Origin: a virus
Lineage: Duplodnaviria; Caudoviricetes
Strand: one strand, 5' to 3'
IMG/VR virus record: IMGVR_UViG_3300042326_001602
Span: 1-51,728 of that record
Length of the DNA stretch: 51,728 nt
A program made the translations under genes and the position numbers. Of this stretch, positions 249 through 51,703 are shown one piece after another. Each line of letters begins with the position of its first letter. The first letter of the stretch is position 1. Under the pieces are notes generated by a model, which did not search any database, had not been told where the DNA came from, and saw only the letters and a program-made list of their open reading frames with translations.

Positions 249-273
249 TCTGATACACTACCCAGACCCCACC
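1..273. repeat. Left copy of terminal direct repeat (assembly overlap / circular permutation)
   Basis: 1-273 matches 51456-51728 except T125/C51580, A161/G51616 and A253/T51708. It begins inside the SSB-like gene. Confidence 0.95.
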
Positions 274-277
274 AGCC

Positions 278-381
278 GGGGGAGGGTTACCCGCAAGGTG
301 CCCTCCCCCTCATAGTCCCCCGGATAGCCCCCTGGTTGCCCCGAACGACGGAGAGCGACCAGGGGGTTTCCGCGGGGGGCC
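278..381 (+). promoter_or_regulatory. Two GC-rich hairpins between the SSB-like gene and the next gene
   Basis: GGGGGAGGG..CC-GCAA-GG..CCCTCCCCC (278-309) and CCCCCTGGTTGC...GCGACCAGGGGG (328-366). Confidence 0.55.
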
Positions 382-395
382 CGAAAGGAACACGC

Positions 396-833
396 GTGTA
401 CGAGACTCGGTTCGTCTATCAGCTGCCGATTGATGAGGCAGCCAACATCGCAAGCCAGGTAGCCAAGGTGTTGGAGGCAACCGAAGTTCATCCCGTAAGC
501 GTCAGCCTTGCAGTTGACGAAGACCGCGCCATCGCGACGATCATCTACCTCACGACTACGCCTGCCGAGAGCGACGACGTAATCAAGCAATGGCGTCGGA
601 TCAACAAGACCATTCAGGTCGAACGCAACCACAAGATCAACCCGGAGAAGTTCCGCAATATCGCCCTACTCGGGCTCGAGAACGGACAGCTCCGCAACAT
701 GTTTGCCAACGAGGTAGAGCGTCTGTGCCGCAAGGGCGTGGGCAGCAAGGGGATCCTTGACTACCTAACCGAGTGCGAAAGCATTGTGTCCCAGCTCAAG
801 GCGTACGTAGAATCTACACGTGCACCAGTCTGA
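396..833 (+). CDS. Hypothetical protein (145 aa; start moved to GTG 396)
   Basis: The conserved CCGAAAGGAACACGC ribosome-binding motif sits directly before an in-frame GTG at 396. Confidence 0.7.
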   Translation: MYETRFVYQLPIDEAANIASQVAKVLEATEVHPVSVSLAVDEDRAIATIIYLTTTPAESDDVIKQWRRINKTIQVERNHKINPEKFRNIALLGLENGQLRNMFANEVERLCRKGVGSKGILDYLTECESIVSQLKAYVESTRAPV

Positions 834-1266
834 ACACGGACTCTCTGCCGTCATCTCCCGACACTCCGGTGAACCCCTTTCCATCACCGGACCCTCCCCC
901 TTCACCGACACCACCGAACCCCTCCACGCCTACGCCGGCATCTACCGTGCACCCACAGGCTGGTGGGGCATCGTCGTGCACTGCCCACGAGGCACGCACC
1001 CCCAGCACGCGATCCAGCACTACGAGTCCACCGACACGCCCGTCACCTGGATCACGCCCCGTGCGAGCATCGGCCTCTACCGCATGCCGTCCAACGAGCT
1101 CGTCGTGTCCGCACGCATCCCCGTGCAGGCAATCGACGAGATGAAGGCGATCATCGGCGAGCAGTCAGGCGACGACTTTGCCGACACTCGCTTCGACCGC
1201 AGGCGCGTTCCCGCTGGCGTGCGATACCTACCCGGCAAGCAGATGCAGCTCTGGTTCTCGCTCTAG
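820..1266 (+). CDS. Hypothetical protein (148 aa)
   Basis: Overlaps the upstream stop, has phage-like codon bias, and converges on the late arm with overlapping stops at 1263-1266. Confidence 0.7.
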   Translation: MHQSEHGLSAVISRHSGEPLSITGPSPFTDTTEPLHAYAGIYRAPTGWWGIVVHCPRGTHPQHAIQHYESTDTPVTWITPRASIGLYRMPSNELVVSARIPVQAIDEMKAIIGEQSGDDFADTRFDRRRVPAGVRYLPGKQMQLWFSL

Positions 1267-4200
1267 CGATTGCCCCAGCGGTACATATCGCCCTGCTCCG
1301 TAGGCTGGCCGGGAACCCCACCAGCCATGAGCTGACCAGGTAGCGACTCAGCAATAGCCTGCTGGTACACATCTCGCGCAGTCTTGTCGATGCTCTCAAG
1401 CGTGCGGCCCACGACGCTCTCCTCGCGCAGCTTGATCGCCTGCTTCATCTGCTCCTGCGTCACGGTCAGCGGCAGGCCGAACCGCTTCTCGAAAGACACC
1501 TTGATCTTGCTGGCCGCGCTCATGTTGTTGCCGAGCACGGCGGCAATGTACTGCCGGCGACCCTCGCGGATTGCGTCGCGGTTCTTGAGGAGGAATTGGC
1601 TCAGCTCCTGCGGCTGGCTGAACCGACCCAGGTCCGCACCAAACGACCGAAGCACCACGTCGCTGGTGGGGAACTGCCCCATGAACCTGCCGTCCGCCTT
1701 GTACACGGGCACCATGCCGCTCTCCGCCTGCCGCCAGTCCGCATACGTCCGCTGAAGCCCCACCGCCTGCAGCGTCTCGCTCGGCCCCGCAGTGCCAAGC
1801 AGTCGGCTCACCGCCACGCCACCGGGCAGAACGCGGGGGATCAGATCGCCCAGGATTTCACTGTCCCCAGTACCTACATACTTCAGCGCCTGCCACCCAA
1901 GGTCAACCACGGGCGGTCGGTACAGCTGCGGCTCGTCGCCCTGCAGCGCCTCCTGTCCACCCACCAGGTCGGTGAAGCCAAGTCCAAGACCACGACTGAC
2001 ATCCGCGCCCAGCGTGCTCTTGAACATCTCGTACGCCACGGCGCTCACCGCCATCATGCGAGAGACGTCAATCAGCGTAGTCCCGAGCTTGCCGCTCACT
2101 TCTCGACCGGCAAAGGTGCGGGTCCCGCCCATCATCGCCGGAACCGTAGCCATGTTCGCAAACGACCGAAGGCCGTACTGCGCGAACTGACGGAACAGCG
2201 GCTCCCGTAGAACCGGAGCGTAGAACAGAGCAGGCCGGTTGATCGGGTTCGTTCCGAACTGGAACTGCTGAACCGCGTTAGCAGCGTCCATCTGCGCCCG
2301 CACAATGTCGTCCCCCACCATCCGTCCAGACTTCTGGTACGCGTTCAGCACGGCGTTTGCGGTCACCGTCCGGTTCAGCGTCTCGCTGAGCTGGAACGGC
2401 TTCATCATTGTCTCGAGCAGGCTGAACTTCGGCTTGCCGATGGAGGCGGAGGATCCGTATCCCGCCTTCTCGATCATGCTCCAGGTGCTGCCGATGTCGC
2501 CGATGCGGGTCATGTCGAGTTCGACATTCCCGAACTTGCGGCGGAAGTGCTTCTCCATCGCAGCCTGGATCTGCCCCTGCGTCGCACCCATGCCGAGCCG
2601 AGAGCGCTCAGCCAGGTACCCGCCGATCATGTTCAGGCTCTGGGCGTAGGCCTCGACCGTGTTCTTGAATCCCAGCTGGTGCACGCTCTGAAGCGGCTGC
2701 AGCAGGTTGATGAGCACGGTGCCTACGTTCAGGCCCATGTGGCTGGCGTACAGCTGGCGAGTGATCGACTGGAACGGACTGAACTCAAGGTCGGTCGAGT
2801 CGGTAGCCCACCGCCGCATGTCAGTCACAAACTTGCCCGCGTACCCACCCTTCGCCTCGACCTTCCGCATGAACTTGCTATCTGCAAGAGCCTGAGTCTG
2901 TCGCTTGATCAAGCCGGCAGCAGCAACGTGCGCCGCCCCGTCCACCGGCCGGATGCCGGCAATGGCCGGAAGGATGTGCTTGCGCCACAGCTCCGGGTAG
3001 TACTTGTCCTTCGGATCGGCCCGTGCCTCAACTTCAATGTCCGTATCGATTAGGTCGTACAGGGAGTACCCGCCAGCAGGCCGCTTCTCCGGAGCTACGC
3101 CCGACAGATCCCGGGTGCCGGCAGGGGCGCCCTCCTTGCTTCGGCCGGTGGGGCCAGGCAGACGAACGTCGGTCACGTTCGGGCCGTAGTCCTTCATAGT
3201 CACTCGCACCATCGGATCGCTCTCCGCGTCGTGCGCGAAGAACGCGTAGTCGCGAGAGACCGAGGTGATGTACTTGTCGGCAGCGACATCCGGAGCGACG
3301 CGCATGGTTCGGTAGAACCCCTGCTCGTCAATCGAGGTAAGGATGCGCTGCTTCTGGATCTCGATCAGCTGATCGAGCTCGGCCGTACCGCCGAAGTTGT
3401 CGGAGATGAACTGAAGATCACCCGGATCCCACGGCACCTCGTTCGTGCGCGTGCGCATCATGCCGCGGCCGGTGGGGTTGATCGGCTCCTTACCCGAGTT
3501 GTCCAGCTTGTTGGTGTACGGGTTGAACGCGATGCGCGAACCGTTCTTGTCCCGCGCCTCAAGTGTGTTGCGAGGCAGGTAGTAGGGATCCTCGAACCCG
3601 ACCGTCAGGGTGTCAACGACAATCTTCTCCAGTTCCTCCGCGCTTGCACCCATCTTGAAGTTCGACCCGCGCGAGCGCCTTCGAGCAGCCATCAAGCGCT
3701 CAGCCACCTCGTCCCCCAGCATGGCGCGAACCGCTTCTTCCCCACCAACCTCGAAGTTGCCGCTGCGGTTCAGGTACCCGGAGTTCTGGAGTGACTTGAT
3801 CTGGCTCCTCGCCAGACGCAGCACCTTCTTCTCGTCAATTACGAACCCACGACCGGCCGCATACGCAGCCTCGTCGCCGGCAAGAAGAACGCGCCCCTGC
3901 TCGTACAGCCTGCTCTCCGCAGCCTGAAACGACTTCAACCCAAACTTGCGCTCAACCTCTTCAAGGGAGCCGATGTCCCGAATGTAAGTCGGACGGTTAC
4001 GCCCCTCGAACTGGACGCGGGGTCCGCCCTCCAGCACGGAGTAGGAATCGACGCTGCCGTGTTCCGTAGGCCGATTCGGATCCACGCGCTTGCGGCCAAG
4101 ACCCATCTTCACGCTGATCTGCGTGCGCCCCTCTCGCATCAGGGTGCCGTACAGGTTCTTGTCCTCAGCTCGGCGACCAGGCAGACGGCGAAGAAGATCG

Positions 4201-5012
4201 ACATCCTCATCCTTCGTCACGTCAAGCGTGCGGTAATCGCCCTGCCTCTTCAGGCGCTTGACCTCGAAGAACTCAGCCTCAGGCACCTCAAGGAACTTGA
4301 TCTTGCGCTTGCCCTTCTCGTTCAGTTCCCCCACCAGCCGGATGTAGAACCGCTCGGGAATGACCTCGCCAACGACCTTCTCCGAACGGGGAGCATCAAA
4401 CCCAAGTCGACGGATCAGGTTGGCGCTGCGGATAAGACGCAGGTCTTTGGCCACCGCCGGATTCGGTGCATCATCGGGATCAAGGCTCTTCAGCTTGACG
4501 CCGTGGATCTGCTCGACCCGGCGAAGCAGGGAGTCCACCTCTCCGTCCATGATCTTCACCAGCATCTGCTGGGTGTCAGCCATGCGGGTAGCGCCTACCT
4601 GGGCCAGCGGAGCAGTACGCTTGCCGATCGACTCAGTAGCACCGCTCGTGAAGTGGAGCATCCGCAGCAACGGGAACGTCGCGGACCCAACCTGCCCAGC
4701 CCAGTGGCCCGCTTGGCCGCCCGCAAAGAACCTGCGACCAGCCGCAAGGTTCCGGGCAGCCGTGCCGTTTGCCCCCATCGTAAGCATCCCAAGCCACACA
4801 AACGGATTGGTGAAGACGTCAATGGCGAGATCCGAAACCGGATTACCGCCAAGACGTTCCTTCATCTTGCCGACAAACGACTCACGCTCAATGGGACTGA
4901 GAGATGCCGGATCAAACAGAACGCGACGCACCGAGTCGGTGGTCGCGATTCCGTTTGCCAGCTGCGTCAGGATGACGGCCGGCTTGTCGTAGGAGCGAAC
5001 CGGGTCAAACAC
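1263..5012 (-). CDS. Large putative internal virion / DNA-ejection protein (1249 aa)
   Basis: Last and largest gene of the late arm, at the position T7 gp16 occupies; mostly helical; no catalytic motif recognised. Confidence 0.6.
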   Translation of the reverse strand: MFDPVRSYDKPAVILTQLANGIATTDSVRRVLFDPASLSPIERESFVGKMKERLGGNPVSDLAIDVFTNPFVWLGMLTMGANGTAARNLAAGRRFFAGGQAGHWAGQVGSATFPLLRMLHFTSGATESIGKRTAPLAQVGATRMADTQQMLVKIMDGEVDSLLRRVEQIHGVKLKSLDPDDAPNPAVAKDLRLIRSANLIRRLGFDAPRSEKVVGEVIPERFYIRLVGELNEKGKRKIKFLEVPEAEFFEVKRLKRQGDYRTLDVTKDEDVDLLRRLPGRRAEDKNLYGTLMREGRTQISVKMGLGRKRVDPNRPTEHGSVDSYSVLEGGPRVQFEGRNRPTYIRDIGSLEEVERKFGLKSFQAAESRLYEQGRVLLAGDEAAYAAGRGFVIDEKKVLRLARSQIKSLQNSGYLNRSGNFEVGGEEAVRAMLGDEVAERLMAARRRSRGSNFKMGASAEELEKIVVDTLTVGFEDPYYLPRNTLEARDKNGSRIAFNPYTNKLDNSGKEPINPTGRGMMRTRTNEVPWDPGDLQFISDNFGGTAELDQLIEIQKQRILTSIDEQGFYRTMRVAPDVAADKYITSVSRDYAFFAHDAESDPMVRVTMKDYGPNVTDVRLPGPTGRSKEGAPAGTRDLSGVAPEKRPAGGYSLYDLIDTDIEVEARADPKDKYYPELWRKHILPAIAGIRPVDGAAHVAAAGLIKRQTQALADSKFMRKVEAKGGYAGKFVTDMRRWATDSTDLEFSPFQSITRQLYASHMGLNVGTVLINLLQPLQSVHQLGFKNTVEAYAQSLNMIGGYLAERSRLGMGATQGQIQAAMEKHFRRKFGNVELDMTRIGDIGSTWSMIEKAGYGSSASIGKPKFSLLETMMKPFQLSETLNRTVTANAVLNAYQKSGRMVGDDIVRAQMDAANAVQQFQFGTNPINRPALFYAPVLREPLFRQFAQYGLRSFANMATVPAMMGGTRTFAGREVSGKLGTTLIDVSRMMAVSAVAYEMFKSTLGADVSRGLGLGFTDLVGGQEALQGDEPQLYRPPVVDLGWQALKYVGTGDSEILGDLIPRVLPGGVAVSRLLGTAGPSETLQAVGLQRTYADWRQAESGMVPVYKADGRFMGQFPTSDVVLRSFGADLGRFSQPQELSQFLLKNRDAIREGRRQYIAAVLGNNMSAASKIKVSFEKRFGLPLTVTQEQMKQAIKLREESVVGRTLESIDKTARDVYQQAIAESLPGQLMAGGVPGQPTEQGDMYRWGNR

Positions 5013-5452: not shown

Positions 5453-6256
5453 TTAGCGGGAGAATCGGCCGTCCGACATGGCTCGACCGAGTTCGTTCAA
5501 CAAATCCTGGCGGGGAGACCCGCCAATGACAATGCCACCTTGCGGCAACCGTCGACCGGCTGCAACGGATGCGTAGAGATCCGGAGCCTGGTTCTGGAGA
5601 TTCATCAGGTTGCGCTGGATGGAGTCCTCGTAGGACGCAGCCTGAGCTTCCTGGGTCAGCCGGTTCATCCGGCCTTCCCGCTCGCTCTGCTCAAGGTCAT
5701 AGATTGCCTTGCGAAGAAGCTCAGTCTCATCTACCCCTGCCGCCTTGTATGCAGCCTTCTTGGCTGCCATTCCCCCAAGCAACCCCAGAGCGGCAACCCC
5801 ACCAGCCCTCAGTACGTTACGGGTAACAGCCTGCCGGCGAAGCGAACCAAACGCCTCGCGAGGCTTCATGCCCTTCTTGTACTTGAGCCCCCGCTTCTTT
5901 GCCAGCTCCTCGAGTTTCTTGGTGTACTGGACATCCCGCTCTTCGTTAGCCGCCTTCATCAAACGCCGCTGCTGCTCAAGCCGCATTCCCGCAAACCCTG
6001 GAGAGCCTTCCGCAGCGGGGCCCATTTCAGGACCTGCCGGCGTAGGACCGACCCGGCTTGAATGCTCGTAAGCCTCCGGAAACGGACCGTGAATCTTCCC
6101 CTTGGGGAACGGACCAACTCGGCGCGGGTGGGGGTAAGCCTTCGGATTTGCGCCAGCGCGAGGGTCAGCCTTCTTGCGGGAAGACGGCTTCTTTGTCGGC
6201 GGCTTCTTGCCGTCAAACAGAGTTGCACCCTTGGGGACAGGCTTTCTCTTAGCCAC
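5453..6256 (-). CDS. Basic putative virion protein (267 aa) with one hydrophobic segment
   Basis: K/R-rich N-terminus with GP repeats; AGGVAALGLLGGMAA segment; coupled to the upstream gene. Confidence 0.65.
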   Translation of the reverse strand: MAKRKPVPKGATLFDGKKPPTKKPSSRKKADPRAGANPKAYPHPRRVGPFPKGKIHGPFPEAYEHSSRVGPTPAGPEMGPAAEGSPGFAGMRLEQQRRLMKAANEERDVQYTKKLEELAKKRGLKYKKGMKPREAFGSLRRQAVTRNVLRAGGVAALGLLGGMAAKKAAYKAAGVDETELLRKAIYDLEQSEREGRMNRLTQEAQAASYEDSIQRNLMNLQNQAPDLYASVAAGRRLPQGGIVIGGSPRQDLLNELGRAMSDGRFSR

Positions 6257-6701: not shown

Positions 6702-7033
6702 TATGCGTTCTCCGTGAACACGATTGCGTCTTCCGCCTCAGGCGAACCGATGCGCCCCACCTTGCCAACCCAGCTGGTGGGGGACTTCCGCTCGACGTAC
6801 ACCAGGACATCCGACTCGCGCCAGATCGGATCGTACCGCACTTCCCACAACCAGCGACGGATTCCCTTGGGCGTCAACTTGCTGAACTCACGGTCCAGCG
6901 CGACCACCGGCAAGAACCCCTTATCCCCCACCAACCCAAAGCCGTTCTCCACCTCGGGGGTGACAAGTCCGACGCCGTACTTGTGCGCCATGTCGCTCAG
7001 GAACCGGCTCATGACCTTCCAGTCCGCGATCAT
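6701..7033 (-). CDS. Hypothetical protein (110 aa)
   Basis: Stop/start coupling on both sides. Confidence 0.65.
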   Translation of the reverse strand: MIADWKVMSRFLSDMAHKYGVGLVTPEVENGFGLVGDKGFLPVVALDREFSKLTPKGIRRWLWEVRYDPIWRESDVLVYVERKSPTSWVGKVGRIGSPEAEDAIVFTENA

Positions 7034-8664
7034 CAGTCGCCAGCCTCCGCCTTGCGCTCAGCAATCAGGCGAGCAAGCATGTCACCGGTCTCCCTGCTGC
7101 CGCGCCTACGAGCGGCCAGCATGCGAAGCGGACTCGTGCGCTCAGCCATGGCCTCTTCCTCGGCCAGGTCGCCAAGGCCGACCATGTCCTCGATCAGACC
7201 CTGTCGACCACGGGAGCGACGGTTAATCAGGTCCATGAGCTCGCCGCTCTGGTCACCCATGCCGGCAATGCCCATTGCCTCCTGAAGCCCGCTGAGCTGT
7301 CCGGTCTGCTTGAACGCACGAACGGCCTCAAGGCCAGCCTCGTACTCCGACAGGTCCATGCCCGGCAGGACGTTGGCTGCCTTGCGGAGCAGAGAACGCT
7401 GGATGTCAAACGCCTCGATTGCCTTCTTGATGCCGATGCTCTGAAGCGTCTGCTCCGGCTCTTCGGCCTGCATCTGAGTCCTGCGCGCAACAAGCTGGGC
7501 GTACTTCGACCCCTCTCCCCGATTCTCAAACGTCTCCGCCGCAGAGGCAAGGAGCATCTTCAAGGTAGACACGGGGACCTTTGCATCGGCCGCAAGCCTT
7601 GCAATCTCCGCCTTGTCCGCGCTGCCGGAGAGCGCCTTGTTCACGAGGTCGGCAGCACGAGCGGAGTCAAAGTCGCGAATGCCCATCTGCTCCAGCGCCC
7701 GAACGGTGCTGTTGGCGATGCGTCCCTTGAGGACATCGGTCATCTCGACCGCGTTCATCTCCCCACCAACCGCCATTGCAGAGGGAGTCTTGTACCAGGA
7801 GGCAGCCCCGAGCCGGCCGAAGCTGGTGGGGGACAGCTTCAGGAACTCAATGCCCGGTGCCTGTCCCGCATTCACCGCATCGCGGATAGAAGTGAAGTCG
7901 GGCGAGGCGGGGTTGAGGAAGTCAAGGCCACCGATCTGCTCGCCGTAGAACCTCTCGAACGCGCTGATGTTCGACTTGTTGCTCTCGTCGTCAAGCATCG
8001 CGGCGTACTGATTGGCAAACGCACGAGCGCGAGCCTGGCTCTGCTGCTCGACGCTCATCGTCCGGCTGAGGTTCTGCTCCGCACCGTTGATGATCCGCTC
8101 GACACCCTCACGGGTCTGTCCTTCCATTGACTGCTTGAGCGCAAGAGCCATGGAAGTCTTGGACTTTCGTCGGAGAAGATCACGCTCCTCAGCCATAAGA
8201 CCCGAGAGCACGTCAAGCATCCCGGCCTCGCGGGCATTCTCTGCCTGCACCCGGATGTTTTCGATTTCAAGGTCGTACTGCTGAATACGCGCAGCCTGCT
8301 GCTGCGAGAACTTCTGACTCGCCTCGCGCTGGGAATTGGCAAACTCCTGAGCCTTGGTCAGCTGCTCAAGCTCGAGCTCATTGCGGAATCGGTCACGAGC
8401 CATCTCGTGCTCGCGTCCAGCGGCGATGTCCTGCATGCCACGCTCAAACTGATAGCCAGACTGCGCCATGCGAGACTGGTCCATTGCCAGCTGCTGCTGG
8501 CGGTAGGCCTGCTCAGCGTCAAGAGCCTGCTGCTGCATGCCCATCTGCTGCATCTGGTTCATCTGCTGCAGACCCTGAGCACGGTTGAACTGCTCCTGGT
8601 TGATTAGGTCGGAGTAGGCCTGATGGCCTCCGGGGGTGATTGCGCTGCCAATCTGGCTTGCCAT
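7033..8664 (-). CDS. Putative internal virion / ejection protein (543 aa, Q-rich coiled coil)
   Basis: Position after the tail genes; Q/E/A/M-rich helical composition. Confidence 0.6.
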   Translation of the reverse strand: MASQIGSAITPGGHQAYSDLINQEQFNRAQGLQQMNQMQQMGMQQQALDAEQAYRQQQLAMDQSRMAQSGYQFERGMQDIAAGREHEMARDRFRNELELEQLTKAQEFANSQREASQKFSQQQAARIQQYDLEIENIRVQAENAREAGMLDVLSGLMAEERDLLRRKSKTSMALALKQSMEGQTREGVERIINGAEQNLSRTMSVEQQSQARARAFANQYAAMLDDESNKSNISAFERFYGEQIGGLDFLNPASPDFTSIRDAVNAGQAPGIEFLKLSPTSFGRLGAASWYKTPSAMAVGGEMNAVEMTDVLKGRIANSTVRALEQMGIRDFDSARAADLVNKALSGSADKAEIARLAADAKVPVSTLKMLLASAAETFENRGEGSKYAQLVARRTQMQAEEPEQTLQSIGIKKAIEAFDIQRSLLRKAANVLPGMDLSEYEAGLEAVRAFKQTGQLSGLQEAMGIAGMGDQSGELMDLINRRSRGRQGLIEDMVGLGDLAEEEAMAERTSPLRMLAARRRGSRETGDMLARLIAERKAEAGD

Positions 8665-13023: not shown

Positions 13024-13025
13024 GG

Positions 13026-33286: not shown

Positions 33287-33339
33287 TCCACCGGGGCGAT
33301 GCGACCGCCCCATTCCCCCACCATCCGAAAGGACACGAC

Positions 33340-34678: not shown

Positions 34679-34750
34679 TCCATCCGCTCGCTCCCCCACC
34701 GGCCTCTGCTCTGCACGCCGGTGGGGGACGGGCATCGCGAAAGGAATCCG

Positions 34751-43156: not shown

Positions 43157-43879
43157 GTGTCCCAAGTCACGGTCCTGATCGACAGCCGAGAGAAGAAGCC
43201 CCTGACCTTTCCGGCCCACCTCGTGGTGCTGGACAGGGCACGCCTGCCCACCGCCGGTCGGTCCCGCACAGTCACGGTCCGCACGCAGTCTGAGACCATG
43301 AAGACTGGGGACTACCGGTTGGTGGGGGGCAAGGCGGCAATCGAACGCAAAGGCTCATTCGAGGAGATCGCTGGGAACTGCCTAACTACTGACGGCAGAA
43401 GGCGTTTTATTGAATGCTGCCGCAGGCTTCGAGATGACGTGCAACATGCCTGCCTCCTGTTTGAGGGCGCAATCGGGGGGTTTGAAGTACGGGCTGGACT
43501 TCCGCACCCGGGTGTTGCAGCGGATGCTTTATTGGATATCATCGGGGCGTTCGGATTGCCGATTATTCTCATGCCCCTAGCGACGGTCGGCCAACGAAGG
43601 GCTGCAGGGGAATGGGCTCTGAGATGGCTGATCTCGAAGGAACAAGCAAATGACCTCAGTCCAGATCTACACAAACACAAGCTCGGCACACTTTGCGACG
43701 ACGACCGGAGGGCCGGATGGTGCGAAGTTTGTAGCCGCTCTTGTTGCGGCTGCGGACACGCCGGCGTCTCATCTTCCGCAAGCAACGAAGCCGGACGCGA
43801 CAAGCCATCCCAATTCCCTGTTCACTGGCAGCAGCCTGAACTACCTCCGGATCAAGCTTCTGACAACGGGGTCGGCTAA
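43157..43879 (+). CDS. ERCC4/XPF-type nuclease (possible resolvase)
   Basis: IDSREKKP, TGDY and AIERK motifs. Confidence 0.8.
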   Translation: MSQVTVLIDSREKKPLTFPAHLVVLDRARLPTAGRSRTVTVRTQSETMKTGDYRLVGGKAAIERKGSFEEIAGNCLTTDGRRRFIECCRRLRDDVQHACLLFEGAIGGFEVRAGLPHPGVAADALLDIIGAFGLPIILMPLATVGQRRAAGEWALRWLISKEQANDLSPDLHKHKLGTLCDDDRRAGWCEVCSRSCCGCGHAGVSSSASNEAGRDKPSQFPVHWQQPELPPDQASDNGVG

Positions 43880-44246: not shown

Positions 44247-46211
44247 ATGTCAACCGAATACTCCCTTCCGAATCCCGCTGGTGGAGCCGTCATTCGACCC
44301 GTACACGGAAGCTCCCGTGCGGGGCAGTTCCTGAAGGATGTCATTCAGGGAATTGACTCCGTTGACATCGTCGTCTTCGGCGACTCGAATGCCGGAAGCG
44401 ATGCGAGCTACGGTTACACGGGCGGGTGGATGGACTCGCTTGCATCCCTTGGCATCAAGCAGTACGCCACTCCGATCTGGTTTACAAACGCAGAGGCTGG
44501 CAATTCTCGGGTCAATGGCCTTGTCGGCAGGTTTACTTACATGGGCTGGAACGGAGATACTGCGGCTGGCGGTGGGGGTACTAACGCTTACAGCCTCGGA
44601 AATCGGATTGCCGCATCGACTGCGAGCGCGGTCGCCGCGGCTGTAATCTGCAACCGGGGACCGGCAGAGGTTTACTACGTTCGCTGCAACACGGCGACTG
44701 CGTCAACCACCTCTACAGTCACCCTCGATCTCAGTGCCAGCCCCACCGATGATGCCTACAACAACATGTGGCTGGCGATGGGCACGGGGCACTACAGGAT
44801 CCTTGACTACAACGGATCTACAAAGGTTGCCACGATTCCGACCCAGGGCGCTGCTCCTACCGCGACTACGTACACGATTACCACGGGTGGTCTTCGTCCT
44901 GCTGCGTTCCGATACGAGCCGTCGCACGTCTCGGCATCGACCAACTACTACTCTCAAACTAGCGGACCGAGCATCCGGCTGAATCCGTACAACGCACTTG
45001 CTGGAGGAAACGGGGCCGGCGCCCAGGATCTTCAGTACCGAGTTGTTCGTTCCGCAATCGGAAGCGGCGGGCAGTACAAGCTTCGTGCGATGTACGCAGC
45101 GAACACTACCATTGCAGCATCCTCGGCGTTTATCAGTACTGCCGCTGGTAGCAGCACTCTCCCCTACGCAACCGACTACACCAACGATTCACTGAACTTC
45201 ACGACGACCGTGACCGGCGGAGTTCCGGACGAGATCAAGTGTGCGTGGGACGGATACAACGTCTCGCCGGCTAGCGATTCCCAGGTAACCGGCCCGCTCA
45301 CTGTCTTCTGGCATTCCGTGATTGCACGAAACACGAAGGGCTACTCGGTCAGCTGCCTCAACTACAACGGCGGTGCGACCACCGAGAATCTAGCGGACCA
45401 GGTGTACTGGTCTGCGCGATTGATTGAGATGGCGCTGCAGGAACTCAGGCAGCGGCAGATTGCAGCCGGTGGTTCTGGTCGCGTGATCTGGTACCACAAC
45501 AGCGGTATCAACGGAAGCGAGACGCCCGAGAGCTACATCACGAACGTCTCAAGGATCATTGATGAGGTGAGCCGGATCTGGGGCAAGTGCGGATTCCCGC
45601 CGAGCGATCTTTCCTTCATCGTCACGGCAACTCATCCCGTCGTCGAGGGCGATACCGGCGCTGGAACATGGTGGCGTCAGTGCGGACTGGTGAACTCGGG
45701 AGCGAAGCAGTGGGTTGCAAGCACCTCGTATGGTGATCGAGTTACCTTCTGCGACCTCTCGGCACTGATCTCCGCTCAGCAGCTCAAGTCCCGGAATCTG
45801 TATCAGCTTCTAAGCAACAATCTTTTCGCGGCACACCTTCGCAGTCCGATCCTTCTTCAGATTCCGAACGATCCGGTTGCGAAGAGCGTTCCTGCCTGGA
45901 GCGCGGCTCGTACCTACGCGATCGGCGAGGTTGTTTCTCTGAGCGGTACGAACTACTACTGCATCGCGGCAACGACGAACAACACGCCTCCGAATGCAAC
46001 CTACTGGTATGCGCTTCCTGCCGGATCCAGCGGTTACGGATCCTCCGCGGCAAACGGAAACCTGTGGGGGACCAGCGGTACGAATGTCCGCTTTAGCAGC
46101 TACACCGCTGCGAACTACGCAGGAAACTACGGTGTTGATATTCAGGTTGCAAGCAACGGGTACCTCGCGATGGTCCTGAACATGATCAATTCGATCACCG
46201 CATACGTCTAA
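44247..46211 (+). CDS. Putative tail spike / depolymerase: SGNH-hydrolase-like domain plus CBM5/12-like module
   Basis: VVFGDSN block I, NSGING block III-like motif, and WSAARTYAIGEVVSLSGTNYYC...PPNATYW. Confidence 0.65.
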   Translation: MSTEYSLPNPAGGAVIRPVHGSSRAGQFLKDVIQGIDSVDIVVFGDSNAGSDASYGYTGGWMDSLASLGIKQYATPIWFTNAEAGNSRVNGLVGRFTYMGWNGDTAAGGGGTNAYSLGNRIAASTASAVAAAVICNRGPAEVYYVRCNTATASTTSTVTLDLSASPTDDAYNNMWLAMGTGHYRILDYNGSTKVATIPTQGAAPTATTYTITTGGLRPAAFRYEPSHVSASTNYYSQTSGPSIRLNPYNALAGGNGAGAQDLQYRVVRSAIGSGGQYKLRAMYAANTTIAASSAFISTAAGSSTLPYATDYTNDSLNFTTTVTGGVPDEIKCAWDGYNVSPASDSQVTGPLTVFWHSVIARNTKGYSVSCLNYNGGATTENLADQVYWSARLIEMALQELRQRQIAAGGSGRVIWYHNSGINGSETPESYITNVSRIIDEVSRIWGKCGFPPSDLSFIVTATHPVVEGDTGAGTWWRQCGLVNSGAKQWVASTSYGDRVTFCDLSALISAQQLKSRNLYQLLSNNLFAAHLRSPILLQIPNDPVAKSVPAWSAARTYAIGEVVSLSGTNYYCIAATTNNTPPNATYWYALPAGSSGYGSSAANGNLWGTSGTNVRFSSYTAANYAGNYGVDIQVASNGYLAMVLNMINSITAYV

Positions 46212-46420: not shown

Positions 46421-46877
46421 CCTCTGGCTGGTGGGGTGCAGCGAGCTCGCGAAGGTGAGCGAGAACGCGACGGCCATCCAGGTCGAGTCGCAGTCACTTA
46501 TAGATCACGGGCGGATGGTGGGGGACAAGGAGGTGGTGACCCGTGCCGGACGCATCCATGATCTTGCTGCTGACATCCATGGTCGGATACCTCATTTGGA
46601 GGACAAAACCCCCGTTTGGTTATCCACCCTATGGTGGGCTGCGGCGGCAGTGGCACTCATCGCCGTCGCCGTCATCCTCTGGCAGACGGGCTTGGGCACG
46701 GCTGTCCGAGTCGCAATTGGATGGCTACCGCGCCGCAAGATCCAAGACGCGAACCTAGCCGCCGGCATGTTGGATCCCGATAAACCCGAGGATGCCCGCG
46801 AGTACGTCGCTGCGCGGCGGGCATCTGACCCCGAGTTCGACGCTGCGTGGCGACGTGTCCACAAGAAAGGTTCATAG
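46374..46877 (+). CDS. Putative lipoprotein with a C-proximal TM segment (spanin-like)
   Basis: Lipobox LVGC at residue 22; TM LWWAAAAVALIAVAVILW. Confidence 0.55.
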   Translation: MNGWTRSSASLSLATSLWLVGCSELAKVSENATAIQVESQSLIDHGRMVGDKEVVTRAGRIHDLAADIHGRIPHLEDKTPVWLSTLWWAAAAVALIAVAVILWQTGLGTAVRVAIGWLPRRKIQDANLAAGMLDPDKPEDAREYVAARRASDPEFDAAWRRVHKKGS

Positions 46878-47911: not shown

Positions 47912-47923
47912 ACCCCACCAGCC

Positions 47924-48436: not shown

Positions 48437-49672
48437 ATGCCCCCACCGACCCAGACTGTCCATTACCCCACCAGCATCTGCGATCCCAACGTCCGCCCAT
48501 GGCTGGAGGCCCACGGCATCTTTGCCCGCAAGCCCCCCATCCGCTCAAGCGACTACCGGCTCGTCCGCTCGTGCCCCCGCACCTACTACCTGTCCCGCCG
48601 GCTTGGCCTGGTCAAGGCGTTCCAGTACAGCGCAGCCCTGACCCGCGGCAGCTGGGTCCACCTCGCATTCGCCTGCATCCTCGATGACCCCACCGACCGA
48701 GCACTGACCCTCGAGCAGGCCATCGCTGCACGCTGCGAGGAACTGCGCGGAGTGTGCAAGCAGCTCGGCGTGTCCGGCGAGAAGACCCGGGAGATGATCG
48801 CCCGCGAGGACCTGGACGCACGCACCAGCATCGCGTGGTTCAACGCAGCCCTCCAGATCCCGGACGGCAGCGGACGCACCCTGGCCCAGCGCTTCGCGGA
48901 GGACTGGGTCGTGGTAGCGCAGGAGCCCGAGATCCGCCACGGCGACCGACTGATCCAGCCCGACTGCCTGCTCAAGGACAAGGCCGGCAAGCTGTGGATC
49001 GTGGACTTCAAGACCACCGGCATGTCCACCAACGCACGCCTGCAAACCTGCCCCCTCGAGTTCCAGACCCAGCACTACTTCCACACCTTCCTCGACAAGT
49101 CCCGTGACGAGGCTGACTTCGCCGGGCAGTACGGCATCAGCTGGCCCGGAGAGATTGGTGGGGTCCTGCACGTCGCGATCCGCAAGCCGTCCATCGAGTT
49201 CGGCATGAAGGACCGTCCGTTCACGCTGGACGAATCGCCGTTCAAGAGCGGACCCCGCAAGGGCGAGCCGCGCAACGAGCGCATCTACACGGGCGAACCT
49301 GACCCGTACCTGTACGAGCAGCGTTGCGTGGATTGGTACATGGGTCGCGGAGAGTACAGCCACTTCGAGCCCGAGCGTCTGACTGACCCGTGCGTTGCGA
49401 TTTCCACCACATCCGCGGAGCTTTTGCTTGCGGAAGATCTCAAGTCGGAGTACCATGCTCGCCTGTCCTTCATCCGGAAGTACACGAGCCTCCAGTCCTA
49501 TCCCAGCGAATTCGAGATCGGTGATCCGGTAGTCCAGCACGGGACTCCGTCGCCGTACCTCCCGTTCCACATGGTCGAGCCTGGCAAGTGGCCCGAGTTG
49601 ATCCTGGCTGAAGGGTTCCTGCAGAGAGACAGAGACACCCACACGGAGATCGACAATGGAGGAGACGCCTAA
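48437..49672 (+). CDS. PD-(D/E)XK (RecB / Cas4-like) exonuclease
   Basis: S......CP..YY, RGSWVH, E, PD, VDFKT and Q..HY motifs. Confidence 0.85.
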   Translation: MPPPTQTVHYPTSICDPNVRPWLEAHGIFARKPPIRSSDYRLVRSCPRTYYLSRRLGLVKAFQYSAALTRGSWVHLAFACILDDPTDRALTLEQAIAARCEELRGVCKQLGVSGEKTREMIAREDLDARTSIAWFNAALQIPDGSGRTLAQRFAEDWVVVAQEPEIRHGDRLIQPDCLLKDKAGKLWIVDFKTTGMSTNARLQTCPLEFQTQHYFHTFLDKSRDEADFAGQYGISWPGEIGGVLHVAIRKPSIEFGMKDRPFTLDESPFKSGPRKGEPRNERIYTGEPDPYLYEQRCVDWYMGRGEYSHFEPERLTDPCVAISTTSAELLLAEDLKSEYHARLSFIRKYTSLQSYPSEFEIGDPVVQHGTPSPYLPFHMVEPGKWPELILAEGFLQRDRDTHTEIDNGGDA

Positions 49673-50186
49673 CCCCACCAGCCAGGAAGCAGGGAAGTCC
49701 GTCCTCGGACCCGTTATCTGGCAAGAGGTCCTGCGCAAGGTGATCGCGCCCAAGGTCACGGTCATCGTCACGCAGTACGGCAACGACATCGAGAACCGGC
49801 AGCAGCTGCACCGCAAGTTCTGCGAGGAGTACGGCATCCGTCCGTCCTACTCCACCTTCAGCAGCTGGTGCGAGGATCTGGGCATCAGCTTCCGCAAGAA
49901 GATCGAGGTCCACATCCCGGGCTGGAAGGAAATGCCGCGTCCGACTCCCGACTTTATAGGACCGATGCCGGCATACCCGGCAACAGAGACGAAGAAGGAA
50001 CAGTCGGTAGCGAAGCAGATCGTTCCGGAAATTCTTCAGGAAGAGGAAGATGCACCGATTGTCTGGGACACGAAGGTACCGCCTCAGAAGCCATCGCAGA
50101 AGTTCAATGAAGATGGGATGCCGACCATTCTTCCCGGAGGGATGAGGATGCCCTCGTTCATTGATTCCGGAAACTACGGCAACTAA
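49656..50186 (+). CDS. Hypothetical protein (176 aa), possible HTH in the N-terminal half
   Basis: GGAG RBS; PSYSTFSSWCEDLGI helix; disordered tail. Confidence 0.65.
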   Translation: MEETPNPTSQEAGKSVLGPVIWQEVLRKVIAPKVTVIVTQYGNDIENRQQLHRKFCEEYGIRPSYSTFSSWCEDLGISFRKKIEVHIPGWKEMPRPTPDFIGPMPAYPATETKKEQSVAKQIVPEILQEEEDAPIVWDTKVPPQKPSQKFNEDGMPTILPGGMRMPSFIDSGNYGN

Positions 50187-50207
50187 CCCCCACCAACAGG
50201 AGTCATC

Positions 50208-51107
50208 ATGACACACTCCGTCACCCACGGTTCGACTGTCGCATCCAAATACGCAGGGCTCGGCAATGCCGTCACCACTGGTCGCACTACTCCTTCCCGC
50301 ATGCTTGGTCTGGTGGTCGGTGAGGCTGGCTGCGGCAAGTCTTTCCTCCTCCAATCCCACCCTGGCGCGTACATCCTCAACCTTGACGAGACGCCTGCGG
50401 TCTGCGGCACCAGCGAGGCCGTCATGTTCCCCACCCCCGGTCCTGACGGCCGATCGGTGGACGAGAAGGGAAGCCCCATCGTCCTCGACTGGGCCGCGCT
50501 CGAGGCGAAGCAGAAGGTCCTGATCGACCTTGCCAAGAGCAACCAGCCCCGCCCCGAGACCGTCGTTATCGACACGCTCGGTGCTGCGATTCGCCTGCTG
50601 CGTCCGCACATCGCCAAGATCTACGGGCGCGAACGGTTCACCGACGTCGACGGTCGGCTTGGCTGGGAGCGCCTGTTCGACACACTCATTGAGTTCGGCA
50701 CCACGCTGCGCCGACACGGCTACGGCGTGTACTACATCGCCCACCTGTCCCGAAAGCACGTCCCGCTGAGCGAGAACCAGAACGTGGAGGAGTACAAGAT
50801 CCTTATCAGCGACGGTCTGTACGCCCGCATGTTCCCCATGTTCGACATCGTCATCCCCGTCACCGCGCAGTGGGACGTGCGGGAGATCACGCGTGATCAG
50901 GAAGCCAACGTCGGCGGCAAAGTCGTTACCCGCAAGGTCACGACGCAGGAAAAGGTCCGTCGCCACTACTGCTCTTTCGACAACCCAAAGCTGGAAGGCA
51001 TCGCCAAGGTTCGTACCCTGTCGCCGCTGACCACCATTGAGCTCCCGAGGGACAACGCATGGCAGTCGTTCTGCTCTGCGTACGAGAGCGCGAACGCGTC
51101 CCGCTGA
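50208..51107 (+). CDS. AAA_24 / Sak4-like ATPase (putative recombinase)
   Basis: Walker A GEAGCGKS, Walker B VVIDT, YYIAH; lies between the exonuclease and SSB-like genes. Confidence 0.8.
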   Translation: MTHSVTHGSTVASKYAGLGNAVTTGRTTPSRMLGLVVGEAGCGKSFLLQSHPGAYILNLDETPAVCGTSEAVMFPTPGPDGRSVDEKGSPIVLDWAALEAKQKVLIDLAKSNQPRPETVVIDTLGAAIRLLRPHIAKIYGRERFTDVDGRLGWERLFDTLIEFGTTLRRHGYGVYYIAHLSRKHVPLSENQNVEEYKILISDGLYARMFPMFDIVIPVTAQWDVREITRDQEANVGGKVVTRKVTTQEKVRRHYCSFDNPKLEGIAKVRTLSPLTTIELPRDNAWQSFCSAYESANASR

Positions 51108-51160
51108 CGCGGGGAACGCGTTCGCTGTCCCTCATCGTTTCGTTTGTTTTGTTTCTTTCA
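51090..51160 (+). terminator. Hairpin plus T-rich tract between the ATPase and SSB-like genes
   Basis: GCGAACGCGT-CCCGC-TGAC-GCGGG-GA-ACGCGTTCGC, then GTTTCGTTTGTTTTGTTTCTTT. Confidence 0.5.
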
Positions 51161-51181
51161 CATCTCTATTCGGAGAATCAG

Positions 51182-51703
51182 ATGCCCATTGAGAACAACG
51201 TCAAGGCCATGTTCAACTCGCTCAACACCGCGTTCGCGCAGGCTCAGCCTGACAACGGCATGGGTGCCGGCGGCTGGTGGCCGGCCGAGGGTCAGCACGA
51301 GGTGTTCGTGTCCAGCCTGAACGTGCGCCCGAGCGAGTACAAGCTGCCGGACGGCCAGAAGGTCGCCGGCACGGAGATCAGCTTCCGGTACCAGCTCATC
51401 AACGACACCGACTCCCCCAACGAGCCGCGCTCGTTCGACGGCAGCGCCTTCCGCCTGCCGCAGGACACCAGCGTCCTCGACGACAAGGGTCGCATGCGCG
51501 TTGACATCGAGATGCGCCGCCTGAAGGGCCACCTCCAGACCATCCTCCGCCGTGACGTCAAGGATATCGGAACCGCTATCGCGGACGCCGATGCCAAGAT
51601 CAACGGTCAGGACGCGGTTGCCGTCGTCGTGAAGTGCCAGTACGACAACGTCAACGGAAAGATCTACCGCAAGGACTTCCTCGTGAAGCCCCTCGCCGGC
51701 TGA
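51182..51703 (+). CDS. Putative ssDNA-binding protein, DUF669-like (173 aa)
   Basis: GGAG RBS before ATG 51182; WPAEGQHEVFV...ISFRYQL pattern; follows the Sak4-like ATPase. Confidence 0.6.
   Translation: MPIENNVKAMFNSLNTAFAQAQPDNGMGAGGWWPAEGQHEVFVSSLNVRPSEYKLPDGQKVAGTEISFRYQLINDTDSPNEPRSFDGSAFRLPQDTSVLDDKGRMRVDIEMRRLKGHLQTILRRDVKDIGTAIADADAKINGQDAVAVVVKCQYDNVNGKIYRKDFLVKPLAG

Follow-up and report, generated by a model that had tools for sequence, protein, structure and literature searches.

A dispersed G-rich word under DNA-level selection in an uncultured phage family, and its resemblance to Chi signals

The lake phage genome analysed here (the window, 51,728 nt) carries some 77 copies of a short G-rich word, about one per 670 bp, and is a member of an uncultured family, known from lake and other metagenomes, in which close kin retain the word. 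The excess of the word, the selection on it at the DNA level, silent sites included, its conservation in kin and its lineage-specific variants are all directly observed; its reader, its host and its effect on degradation or recombination we infer only. Its closest likeness is to the Chi signals that certain phages accumulate to restrain a host DNA-degrading enzyme, and our leading but still tentative reading is that it may be a Chi-like signal for a RecBCD/AddAB-type nuclease of the host, as in phages LLS, P1 and MD8.

The octamer GCTGGTGG occurs 35 times in the window (13 on the + strand, 22 on the - strand). A preliminary description had listed about 34 copies, all 34 of which are present, and had missed one at 11188 (-). 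Dinucleotide shuffles averaged 3.24 copies and peaked at 9, with 0 of 100 reaching 35. The 18 copies of GGCTGGTGGGG and 7 of GGTTGGTGGGG described earlier were found at their listed places and make up the 25 copies of GGYTGGTGGGG (6 on +, 19 on -), against 0.07 expected and a maximum of 2 in the shuffles. The over-representation is real and stronger than first stated. The core GGTGGGG has 78 hits at 77 unique sites, the window ends sharing a 273-bp terminal overlap:

267..277 (-), 11-mer GGCTGGTGGGG; shortened copy in 273-bp terminal overlap
958..968 (+), 11-mer GGCTGGTGGGG
1316..1326 (-), 11-mer GGCTGGTGGGG
1662..1671 (+), 10-mer GCTGGTGGGG
1758..1764 (-), core GGTGGGG only
2313..2323 (-), variant GGATGGTGGGG
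3143..3153 (+), variant GGCCGGTGGGG
3467..3477 (+), variant GGCCGGTGGGG
3740..3750 (-), 11-mer GGTTGGTGGGG
4329..4339 (-), 11-mer GGCTGGTGGGG
5797..5807 (-), 11-mer GGCTGGTGGGG
6127..6133 (+), core only
6755..6761 (-), core only
6773..6782 (+), 10-mer GCTGGTGGGG
6926..6936 (-), 11-mer GGTTGGTGGGG
7761..7771 (-), 11-mer GGTTGGTGGGG
7822..7831 (+), 10-mer GCTGGTGGGG
9584..9590 (-), core only
10345..10355 (-), 11-mer GGCTGGTGGGG
10672..10682 (-), variant GGTGGGTGGGG
11274..11284 (+), variant GGCGGGTGGGG
12910..12919 (-), 10-mer GCTGGTGGGG
15052..15058 (-), core only
15577..15587 (-), variant GGATGGTGGGG
16810..16820 (-), 11-mer GGCTGGTGGGG
17404..17414 (+), variant GGCAGGTGGGG
17489..17498 (+), 10-mer GTTGGTGGGG
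18071..18077 (-), core only
18116..18126 (+), variant GGCGGGTGGGG
18196..18202 (-), core only
20753..20763 (-), 11-mer GGCTGGTGGGG
21684..21694 (-), 11-mer GGCTGGTGGGG
22309..22318 (+), 10-mer GCTGGTGGGG
23170..23176 (+), core only
23951..23957 (-), core only
24382..24392 (-), variant GGCAGGTGGGG
24959..24969 (+), variant GGCCGGTGGGG
26649..26659 (+), variant GGCAGGTGGGG
27122..27128 (+), core only
27530..27540 (-), variant GGATGGTGGGG
28773..28783 (-), variant GGCGGGTGGGG
29692..29702 (+), variant GGGTGGTGGGG
30645..30655 (-), 11-mer GGCTGGTGGGG
30825..30834 (+), 10-mer GTTGGTGGGG
31877..31887 (+), variant GGACGGTGGGG
33316..33326 (-), variant GGATGGTGGGG
34694..34704 (-), variant GGCCGGTGGGG
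34720..34726 (+), core only
35855..35865 (-), 11-mer GGTTGGTGGGG
36441..36447 (-), core only
37316..37322 (-), core only
37524..37534 (+), 11-mer GGCTGGTGGGG
37653..37663 (-), 11-mer GGCTGGTGGGG
39477..39487 (-), 11-mer GGCTGGTGGGG, in polA
39750..39760 (-), variant GGCAGGTGGGG
40012..40021 (+), 10-mer GCTGGTGGGG, in polA
40092..40102 (-), 11-mer GGTTGGTGGGG, in polA
40371..40377 (-), core only
40835..40845 (+), 11-mer GGCTGGTGGGG, in polA
41103..41113 (-), 11-mer GGCTGGTGGGG, in polA
42372..42378 (-), core only
42572..42582 (-), variant GGCGGGTGGGG
42988..42998 (+), 11-mer GGTTGGTGGGG
43084..43093 (-), 10-mer GCTGGTGGGG
43317..43327 (+), 11-mer GGTTGGTGGGG
44571..44577 (+), core only
44741..44747 (-), core only
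46426..46436 (+), 11-mer GGCTGGTGGGG
46513..46523 (+), variant GGATGGTGGGG
47913..47923 (-), 11-mer GGCTGGTGGGG, immediately before the start codon of the + gene at 47924
48441..48451 (-), variant GGTCGGTGGGG
48466..48475 (-), 10-mer GCTGGTGGGG
48688..48698 (-), variant GGTCGGTGGGG
49157..49163 (+), core only
49673..49683 (-), 11-mer GGCTGGTGGGG
50188..50197 (-), 10-mer GTTGGTGGGG, intergenic, upstream of the Sak4-like gene
50429..50435 (-), core only
51722..51728 (-), core GGTGGGG; terminal-overlap duplicate of the 267-277 site, cut by the window end

The unit under selection is the degenerate 11-mer GG-[C>T>A]-[T>N]-GGTGGGG (also GGYNGGTGGGG) with its strict core GGTGGGG. GG stands at -4/-3 before the core in 47 of the 77 sites having full upstream flank, and frequent variants besides GGYT- are GGCC-, GGAT-, GGCG- and GGCA-GGTGGGG. 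While 26 of the 35 octamers continue with GG, the nine that do not are at about background (3-7 expected) and show no enrichment, which counts against a Chi-like reading. The earlier interpretation stands for DNA-level selection and conservation in relatives, but not for the enterobacterial Chi octamer as the selected unit, as the 5' GCT is the degenerate part and the invariant part extends 3' by GG. The four functions it had suggested (a Chi-like signal of the host, a site for the phage's own nuclease/Sak4 module, a priming site and a binding site for a coating protein) all stay candidates. Like E. coli Chi, 5'-GCTGGTGG-3', the word is G-rich, and its commonest form holds the octamer, in favour of the Chi-like reading; unlike in E. 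coli Chi, the octamer's first three letters vary and two more 3' G are required. The 3' flank of E. coli Chi has A or G at +4 to +7, a purine preference not seen at these positions here.

The excess of GYTGGTGGGG (36 observed) outlasted a synonymous-codon shuffle (mean 7.0, maximum 13; 0/300 reach the observed count), a codon-order shuffle (mean 4.5, maximum 7; 0/300) and a dicodon Markov model fitted to the genes of the phage itself (mean 6.0, maximum 10; 0/200). Enrichment remained under every coding control applied. The word runs in all reading frames and, as the preliminary description had noted, lies on either strand and also between genes, with GCTGGTGG four times in polA. Of the 78 copies, 34 read as sense and 35 as antisense, and 9 are non-coding or sit at gene boundaries. 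Coding does limit where the word can be written, because 28 of the 35 antisense copies share a single frame (CCC-ACC-AGC, all C-ending codons), as a functionless by-product of codon, dipeptide or mutational bias would also have it. Such a by-product is nonetheless highly improbable and already close to refuted, given the three models, the 9 of 78 copies in non-coding or boundary positions, the extra conservation of silent sites within the word and a G-rich sister word at 0.24-0.86 per kb in kin of GC 37-40%.

Conservation among relatives likewise supports the earlier proposal that the target of selection is the DNA and not the codons. Among kin that share 76-90% nucleotide identity, silent codon positions within the 10-mer are 85.0% identical (847/996) versus 68.1% outside, so that relatives do keep the word at synonymous positions. 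Of 627 orthologous places, 377 retain the core, versus 32.8% for random 7-mers, and about 40% of word places turn over among kin at unchanged density, which fits selection for density. Silent-site conservation, core retention and turnover at constant density all speak for the Chi-like reading. On a polA tree, GG-YT-GGTGGGG marks a clade of GC 60-64% (19 rows), and variants of AGTGGGGG with lineage-specific flanks mark its sister clade (25 rows, GC 37-56%); GTGGGG is common to all variants. That the word tracks phage phylogeny, with AGTGGGGG throughout one clade of wide GC range, argues against a host nuclease, and it makes a phage-encoded reader at least as easy an explanation and a serious rival. 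Four genes give the context:

30163..31575 (+), P4-family primase C-terminal / SF3 helicase, 471 aa, family-wide; candidate phage-encoded reader
48437..49672 (+), PD-(D/E)XK (RecB-like) nuclease, kept across the family
50208..51107 (+), Sak4-like annealase (AAA_24), kept across the family
23847..25784 (-), large terminase

The reader could be a phage replication protein, a possibility we rate below the Chi-like one but above the others considered here, with the word as a loading or binding site for a helicase or as the start site of an unrecognised primase. Helicase, UDG-like protein, PolA, nuclease and Sak4-like protein are conserved in all these lineages, the word variants follow the polA tree and share GTGGGG, and no unrelated phage with the dispersed word appears among the IMG/VR matches listed (pair pattern; 80 of 119 stretches with long flanks); phage and host phylogenies may, however, simply co-vary. 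P4 alpha primase-helicase binds octamer iterons that cluster at the origin, and by analogy the conserved helicase, which is of the P4 primase C-terminal family, might bind the word. Unlike P4 iterons, the sites are dispersed: the tightest groups hold 3 within about 250 bp, with no iteron-like cluster marking an origin, and short-range pairs are not above chance by our own estimate from the site list. The earlier remark that no phage primase is visible holds in essence. What the 471-aa protein matches in P4-family primases is their C-terminal helicase part alone, and the kin helicase (about 466-487 aa at 33 loci with a complete ORF) has no primase domain at any kin locus examined, which leaves priming unexplained. 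In a primase version, synthesis might start opposite the T of GT-GGGG, which, as in T7-type sites, is readable as a start-plus-cryptic-flank signal, and a spacing of about 0.7-1.3 kb per strand would lie within the Okazaki fragment range. Against this, no primase was identified among the phage proteins, and the recognition words of primases of T7-like phages and others are just 3-5 nt, shorter than the word. Nor does the strand bias switch along the genome, which bidirectional replication would bring about.

Most copies of the G-rich word share one physical strand, the one that codes for the structural genes (1263-30136, all on -); for the 11-mer the ratio between strands is 10:0 on the left arm and 8:5 on the right. 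For 7- to 10-mers the bias in this window, 1.7-1.9 to 1, does not exceed the 2.4-3.0 to 1 expected from strand composition, a point against the Chi-like reading. In two kin lineages, those with GTGGGGGGA (14:59 at GC skew -0.01) and GCTGCGGTG (2:15 at GC skew 0.00), one-strand bias goes far beyond GC skew, which together with the one-strand placement here supports that reading. Polarity is weak or absent in two of four lineages tested, and is absent (45:44) in a GC-40% lineage. KOPS and SRS guide words, such as GGGNAGGG and GAGAAGGG, are G-rich, octamer-size and strand-polar, and a comparable role in steering a directional DNA translocase, whether the host's FtsK/SpoIIIE or a phage motor, would suit a G-rich 7-9-mer with the polarity of the GTGGGGGGA and GCTGCGGTG lineages. 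We regard this as quite unlikely, as polarity is within composition in the window and missing from the GC-40% lineage, and neither a dif-like target nor an FtsK-like gene was seen.

After composition correction both orientations of TGGTGGGG are about equally enriched (17 on + and 31 on - versus 0.89 and 2.14 expected; 19-fold and 14-fold), as expected of an orientation-independent site. The word might be bound in double-stranded form by a phage protein with a part in marking or organising the phage's DNA, for example a small terminase (many packaging starts, on phage and not host DNA), a DNA-coating or compacting protein, a site-specific nickase or a base-modifying enzyme. It could serve as a self mark, because its density in the phage is 10-fold or more that of any of the 335 bacterial genomes searched, and two near-identical assemblies that are circular permutations of each other are compatible with headful packaging. 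Yet none of the phage proteins was recognised as a candidate binder, nickase or modification enzyme, we know of no precedent for a dispersed packaging signal, and the strong polarity of two kin lineages argues for a strand-reading enzyme; we consider such a site unlikely.

The host search, proposed in the preliminary description, gave no support to the Chi-like reading. None of 335 candidate host genomes (201 from the order of a Burkholderiales MAG, 71 from a picocyanobacterial order, 61 Alphaproteobacteria and 2 others) is rich in the word, GYTGGTGGGG reaching at most 0.067 per kb versus 0.70 in the phage, and in five further MAGs, from lakes or elsewhere, the 11-mer has no more than 57 copies. 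The richest genome, G248, shows nothing unusual for TGGTGGGG, with 85 copies in 400 kb where 64-74 are expected (z-rank above 4,600). The phage's own module also speaks against the reading: the PD-(D/E)XK nuclease and Sak4-like annealase described earlier are borne out, while an SSB is hinted at by a weak DUF669 lead.

Among known systems, the closest are the Chi-rich phages: E. coli lambdoid LLS, P1, and P. aeruginosa MD8 with its kin (Zheng, Casjens, Davidson, Amundsen & Smith, Genome Res 2025, PMC12315714; Bobay, Touchon & Rocha 2013, PMC3784561). The former study gives Chi as the top octamer in LLS, P1 and MD8, with a copy every 1.86 kb in LLS and every 1.90 kb in P1, and reports that in lambdoid phages high Chi density accompanies absence of an own recombination module. 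Buton & Bobay (2021, PMC8022716) propose proteobacterial Chi variants that are one-letter neighbours of GCTGGTGG. Like those phages, this one has a single short G-rich word as its most frequent octamer, mostly on one strand, within genes in several frames, unexplained by codon usage, at roughly one copy per 1-2 kb (here every 1.44 kb for the 10-mer and every 0.67 kb for core sites), and coming and going among relatives. Unlike theirs, the word is not any organism's known Chi, is longer and partly degenerate, is not clustered at one end and has an orientation bias within strand composition, and the phage has an annealase/nuclease module of its own, which LLS-class phages are without. The comparable density and the 14-19-fold excess per strand, surviving codon, codon-order and dicodon models, favour the Chi-like reading. 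Under it, a host RecBCD- or AddAB-type helicase-nuclease would load at the ends of injected or replicating linear phage DNA, meet the word on the unwound strand, cease degradation and pass the end to recombination, the step that the phage would need for circularising its permuted genome and building concatemers.

The preliminary description proposed an 11-mer containing the E. coli Chi octamer, GCTGGTGG, as the selected motif. Its positions for the octamer were all correct, and we found one further copy at 11188 on the − strand, giving 35 copies against 3.24 expected, a count that none of 100 shuffles reached. The 11-mer GGYTGGTGGGG was likewise over-represented, with 25 copies against 0.07 expected. 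Rank 1 among the octamers of the window, with 48 copies against 3.0 expected, is held by TGGTGGGG, which carries the heptamer GGTGGGG. This core has 78 matches, one of which is a cut duplicate in the terminal overlap, leaving 77 unique sites, and the decamer GYTGGTGGGG occurs once per 1.44 kb.

Classes of core sites in the window
25 sites: GGYTGGTGGGG
11 further sites: GYTGGTGGGG
22 other sites: GGNNGGTGGGG
20 sites: core only

Upstream of the core, the logo shows G (71%), G (86%), then C (56%), T (25%) or A (12%), then T (62%), C (18%), G (10%) or A (9%), while the base after GGTGGGG is G in 44% and T in 31%. As counts over the 77 sites, the variable third position of the word is C in 43, T in 19, A in 9 and G in 6, and the variable fourth is T in 48, C in 14, G in 8 and A in 7. 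One-base variants of GGTGGGG beside GYT are rare, at zero to two copies each and five for the last G; among GYT-linked one-base variants, the fourth position is unconstrained (18 copies). The Chi octamer is followed by GG in 26 of its 35 occurrences, and the other 9 are close to background. Because GGTGGGG is the conserved part and octamers lacking the GG sit at background, with the C and T of GCT both free to vary, the E. coli octamer is a passenger within the commonest variant and not the unit under selection. The word itself is real and strongly selected, with a wider definition than the one first proposed.

We then compared the counts with three models that preserve coding properties to different degrees.

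Observed and expected counts under coding controls
Synonymous-codon shuffle within genes: GYTGGTGGGG 36 observed, mean 7.0 (maximum 13); GGTGGGG 78 observed, mean 27.6 (maximum 40); observed counts reached in 0 of 300
Codon-order shuffle: GYTGGTGGGG 36 observed, mean 4.5 (maximum 7); GGTGGGG 78 observed, mean 20.8 (maximum 30); observed counts reached in 0 of 300
Dicodon Markov chain: GYTGGTGGGG 36 observed, mean 6.0 (maximum 10); GGTGGGG 78 observed, mean 35.6 (maximum 51); observed counts reached in 0 of 200

The dicodon chain was trained on the phage's own genes and is conservative, because the codon pairs of the word are already present in the training set; under it, GGYTGGTGGGG was observed 25 times against 3.5. 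The earlier suggestion that selection acts on the DNA and not on codons thus holds up, as the excess persists under the codon, codon-order and dicodon models, the kind of control that the preliminary description had named as able to refute it. Pure bias as the source of the word is, in our estimation, scarcely credible. Sites fall on the sense strand of genes in 34 cases, on the antisense strand in 35, and in non-coding or boundary positions in 9, with non-coding DNA making up 6.4% of the window. Antisense copies use a single frame, CCC-ACC-AGC, in 28 of 35 cases, and sense copies use two main frames; coding therefore restricts the places where the word can be written and does not create it. 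A Shine-Dalgarno reading of the word was rejected by reasoning from its sequence, as it does not pair with the anti-Shine-Dalgarno. Two − strand copies lie close to translation starts, one at 47913-47926 (CCCCACCAGCC), directly before the ATG of a + strand gene at 47924, and one at 50188-50210, upstream of a + strand start at 50208 with an AGGAG Shine-Dalgarno between them; these copies might affect translation starts.

IMG/VR holds many relatives of this phage, and close kin keep the word. In a close clade (PolA 82-99% identical, GC 0.60-0.64), z-scores place TGGTGGGG first among octamers at all 19 polA-side loci, and core sites number 1.68 per kb on the polA side (328 kb covered) and 1.33 per kb on the TerL side (330 kb). 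When the window was aligned with loci of 76-90% nucleotide identity, the core was intact at 377 of 627 orthologous places, compared with 32.8% for random 7-mers. Conservation at synonymous positions, which the preliminary description had put forward as a check, was also evident: third-codon positions within the 10-mer were 85.0% identical (847/996) against 68.1% elsewhere (78,085/114,680), with first and second codon positions no different from background. Since the aligned pairs are phylogenetically non-independent, these conservation figures are descriptive. About 40% of word places are unshared between kin at equal density, which means that some copies persist and others are replaced.

More distant relatives carry altered forms of the word. 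A quickly built PolA tree of 52 rows, for which SH-aLRT was the sole support measure, places 19 rows in the TGGTGGGG clade (support 100), apart from a second clade with 25 members (support 98). Each of these 25 has AGTGGGGG, at 0.13-0.86 per kb and GC contents from 37% to 56%. Lineages within this second clade have their own forms, namely GAGTGGGGG (GC about 40%), AGTGGGGGGA (GC about 45-56%) and TTAGTGGGGAAT (one locus), and two loci have GCTGCGGTGC in addition. On the TerL side, kin of 69% identity and GC 0.50 have the weaker CTGGTGGG, and kin of 55% identity and GC 0.58 have TGGGGGGA. GTGGGG is common to all of these forms. As AGTGGGGG is shared across GC 37-56% within one PolA clade, the word follows phage phylogeny more than GC. 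A G-quadruplex or i-motif reading was rejected, since GAGTGGGGG, judged from its sequence, cannot form four G-runs.

Loci L057-L064 have the word of the window, and as an independent lineage they would have spoken for a host signal. This reading was rejected, because many of their genes have counterparts in the window at 43-90% amino-acid identity. A pair-pattern scan of IMG/VR matched at least 119 stretches, 80 of them with long flanks, and among the matches listed the dispersed word was found only in the window's own species; in unrelated viral contigs the string sits in glycine-rich or tandem repeats and is not dispersed. Two such contigs (L249 and L284, GC 0.35) have tandem 18-bp units with CTGGTGGGG; seven copies lie 18 or 36 bp apart (8 sites per ~160 bp), and the array is probably a repeat inside a gene. 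Two other variations were seen among the kin. Locus L055 (19.7 kb, GC 0.625), whose PolA is 40% identical and on a very long branch, has GGTGGGG at 2:30, on one strand and in a generally G-rich context, with TTCCTAGG and TTCCAGTC as top octamers and no defined longer word. Loci L028 and L029 (GC 0.52-0.54) have, besides AGTGGGGG, a second over-represented and polar word, GCTGCGGTG(C), with 17 copies at 2:15 and zero GC skew.

The window, an IMG/VR virus record (51,728 bp, GC 0.61), is rated 99% complete. Its bases 1-273 are repeated at 51456-51728 with 3 mismatches, and a second assembly of 51,600 bp, 99-100% identical, starts ~11.6 kb away and crosses the end-to-start junction. Together these features mark the genome as circular or circularly permuted, with a unique length of ~51,455 bp; the ends of the window are arbitrary, and the label of the record is "linear".

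Gene layout of the window
1263-30136, − strand: structural genes, including the large terminase
23847-25784, − strand: large terminase
26055-26435: 126-aa protein, upstream of the large terminase
30163-51703, + strand: genes including those for helicase, family-4 UDG-like protein, PolA, PD-(D/E)XK nuclease and Sak4-like protein
30163-31575, + strand: P4-family primase C-terminal/SF3 helicase, without primase domain
48437-49672, + strand: PD-(D/E)XK nuclease

The genes that lie within ~10 kb of polA and are conserved in all of these lineages encode the helicase, UDG-like protein, PolA, nuclease, Sak4-like protein and two small proteins; the Sak4-like protein (phrog_124, PF13479) and the PD-(D/E)XK nuclease (PF12705, phrog_1218) are both present in the window and conserved family-wide. 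The helicase resembles P4-family primase-helicases in their C-terminal half only, and wherever a kin locus has its complete ORF (33 loci) it is ~466-487 aa long. It lacks a primase domain in every one of these, and no primase was recognisable near its gene. Other parts of the genome are more variable. A 677-aa protein (26432-28468, − strand), which adjoins the terminase genes and whose residues 199-249 form a sigma-70 region-4 helix-turn-helix, is present in only 2 kin loci and is thus a variable accessory gene; comparison of this protein and of 397-aa and 411-aa window proteins with PDB sequences gave nothing useful. A low-GC island at 12001-16000 (GC 0.54-0.55 against ~0.61; 3 core sites per 4 kb), whose genes are poorly conserved in kin (50-84% identity, 1-8 loci), probably represents a tail-fibre or host-range module acquired by exchange.

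In the window, the word prefers the − strand, the coding strand of the structural genes. For the 11-mer, − and + copies stand at 10:0 in the left arm against 8:5 in the right; for the core, the corresponding ratios are 24:16 and 24:12. The − strand is G-rich throughout the window apart from 28-32 kb, and strand-specific Markov models predict a −/+ ratio of 2.4-3.0, against 1.7-3.5 observed (1.7-1.9 for the 7-, 8- and 10-mers); TGGTGGGG is enriched 19-fold on the + strand and 14-fold on the −. A strand skew beyond composition, as in KOPS- or AIMS-type words, is thus absent in the window, and the GC-40% lineage stands at 45:44, while two other kin lineages show polarity without GC skew (14:59 and 2:15, antisense to polA). 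With these ratios, we regard a KOPS-like guide word as very unlikely. Distances between sites vary slightly less than at random (CV 0.83 against 0.98, with 6% of simulations as low; largest gap 2.6 kb), and the sites are dispersed, with no array and no tight origin cluster of the P4 iteron type. The GC skew itself is uncoupled from transcription at 32-42 kb, where the + strand is coding yet C-rich (skew −0.16 to −0.27), and is positive only at 28-32 kb (+0.05, +0.26); a − strand that is G-rich almost genome-wide suggests a replication- or repair-linked asymmetry.

To our knowledge, a frame-independent G-rich word as the commonest octamer of a phage, at about one per 1-2 kb, is documented for Chi-rich phages only. 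Because these phages are the only documented match to its signature, we tentatively rank first the reading in which the word would be a Chi-like signal for a host enzyme of the RecBCD/AddAB type. Like theirs, the word of the window is the top octamer, at a density within about one per 1-2 kb. The passages on Chi-rich phages in PMC12315714 give 23 Chi sites for LLS (one per 1.86 kb, 20 in one orientation), 50 for P1, and 32 copies of GCTGGCGC, all on the same strand, for MD8, in whose host PAO1 this Pseudomonas Chi ranks just 43rd among octamers; such phages are also treated by Bobay et al. 2013 (PMC3784561). According to the same passages, lambdoids with their own annealase/nuclease module have few Chi sites (PMC12315714). 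Unlike Chi-rich phages, the phage of the window carries its own Sak4-like and PD-(D/E)XK module. No GGTGGGG-type motif appears in the sections consulted of one published work on Chi (PMC8022716), and a full-text search for "GGTGGGG" with "Chi" gave nothing relevant among the matches listed, which is not evidence of absence.

A Chi-like host signal also calls for a host, and none of the clues pointed to one. There are no tRNA genes in the window to indicate a host. Cultured relatives were not found by megablast with 25 kb of the window, by tblastn with TerL, or by a search with PolA from the L057 lineage, and the window's PolA is less than 31% identical to those of cultured phages over the aligned parts, mostly 22-25%. 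Sequencing runs with phage DNA were lake or freshwater metagenomes only (20 rows, 17 studies, 6 marked as possible sources), with no isolate among the runs matched. A pair-pattern scan of bacterial genome contigs, one genome per species, matched at least 120 stretches, and among the 80 listed the matches were scattered singles in GC-rich taxa, chance-like, with only one genome matched twice.

With these matches as starting points, we counted GYTGGTGGGG in 335 genomes: 201 from the order of a Burkholderiales MAG, 71 from a picocyanobacterial order, 61 Alphaproteobacteria, one Cryobacterium and one Verrucomicrobiales. (Two of these, G031 and G320, are flagged as unpublished, and no result depends on either.) None of the 335 was word-rich: the highest count, 222 in 3.3 Mb, corresponds to 0.067 per kb, compared with 0.70 in the phage, and five further MAGs had at most 57 copies of the 11-mer; the true host may lie outside both samples. 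In 400 kb of the richest genome (G248), TGGTGGGG was inconspicuous, with 85 copies against 64-74 expected and a z-rank beyond 4,600 of 55,436. An apparently perfect replication polarity in this genome was rejected, as the all-+ run of the first 30 matches was an artefact of listing order and + matches span the whole chromosome. Picocyanobacteria were rejected as hosts: GYTGGTGGGG is 4-8 times as frequent as its reversed control in their larger genomes, yet is no outlier by Markov expectation, and in 5 small genomes of the order the copy number of the sister word GAGTGGGGG is just 1-9. The strong Shine-Dalgarno match in 34 of 61 phage genes is weakly indicative of a poor fit to a picocyanobacterial host.

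Four observations thus stand against a Chi-like host signal, namely the phage's own annealase/nuclease module, the tracking of phage phylogeny over a 19-point GC range, the lack of a host candidate among the genomes searched, and orientation neutrality in the window lineage once strand composition is allowed for. Together they fit a phage-encoded reader at least as well. That this reader is the conserved P4-type helicase or an unrecognised primase is conceivable, if rather doubtful. A protein binding double-stranded DNA, for example one that packages or marks it, nicks it or modifies it, is less likely still. Slightly more plausible, and still on the unlikely side, is the broader idea that the word is a self-mark and no host signal, with a reader encoded by the phage family, for instance the primase-less P4-type helicase, the RecB-like nuclease or the small terminase. 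If so, word and reader would have co-evolved, so that the freshwater clade of GC 61% has TGGTGGGG and the sister clade of GC 37-56% has AGTGGGGG, and the word would serve these phages as their own counterpart of Chi or of dispersed origins, which would start replication or recombination or distinguish phage from host DNA. With the Chi-like host signal still ranked first, the word is best classed with the Chi-rich-phage phenomenon, as a variant of it, and a phage family reading its own word is possible.

As far as we know, Chi-type signals are experimentally established for a handful of bacteria only, and descriptions of Chi-rich phages are confined to P1 and to the lambdoids of enterobacteria and Pseudomonas. 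Here, the same signature appears with new words in a phage family from lakes and other environments that is abundant and uncultured; its word variants change by degrees along the phage tree, and its members also own a recombination module. The word is exact enough for direct testing, with GGCTGGTGGGG against a mutated control of the GGCTGGTGCGG type. If a host nuclease is the reader, the words of these phages would reveal the Chi of uncultured bacteria and give a sequence handle on phage-host pairing; if the reader is phage-encoded, they would represent a new kind of dispersed self-recognition signal.
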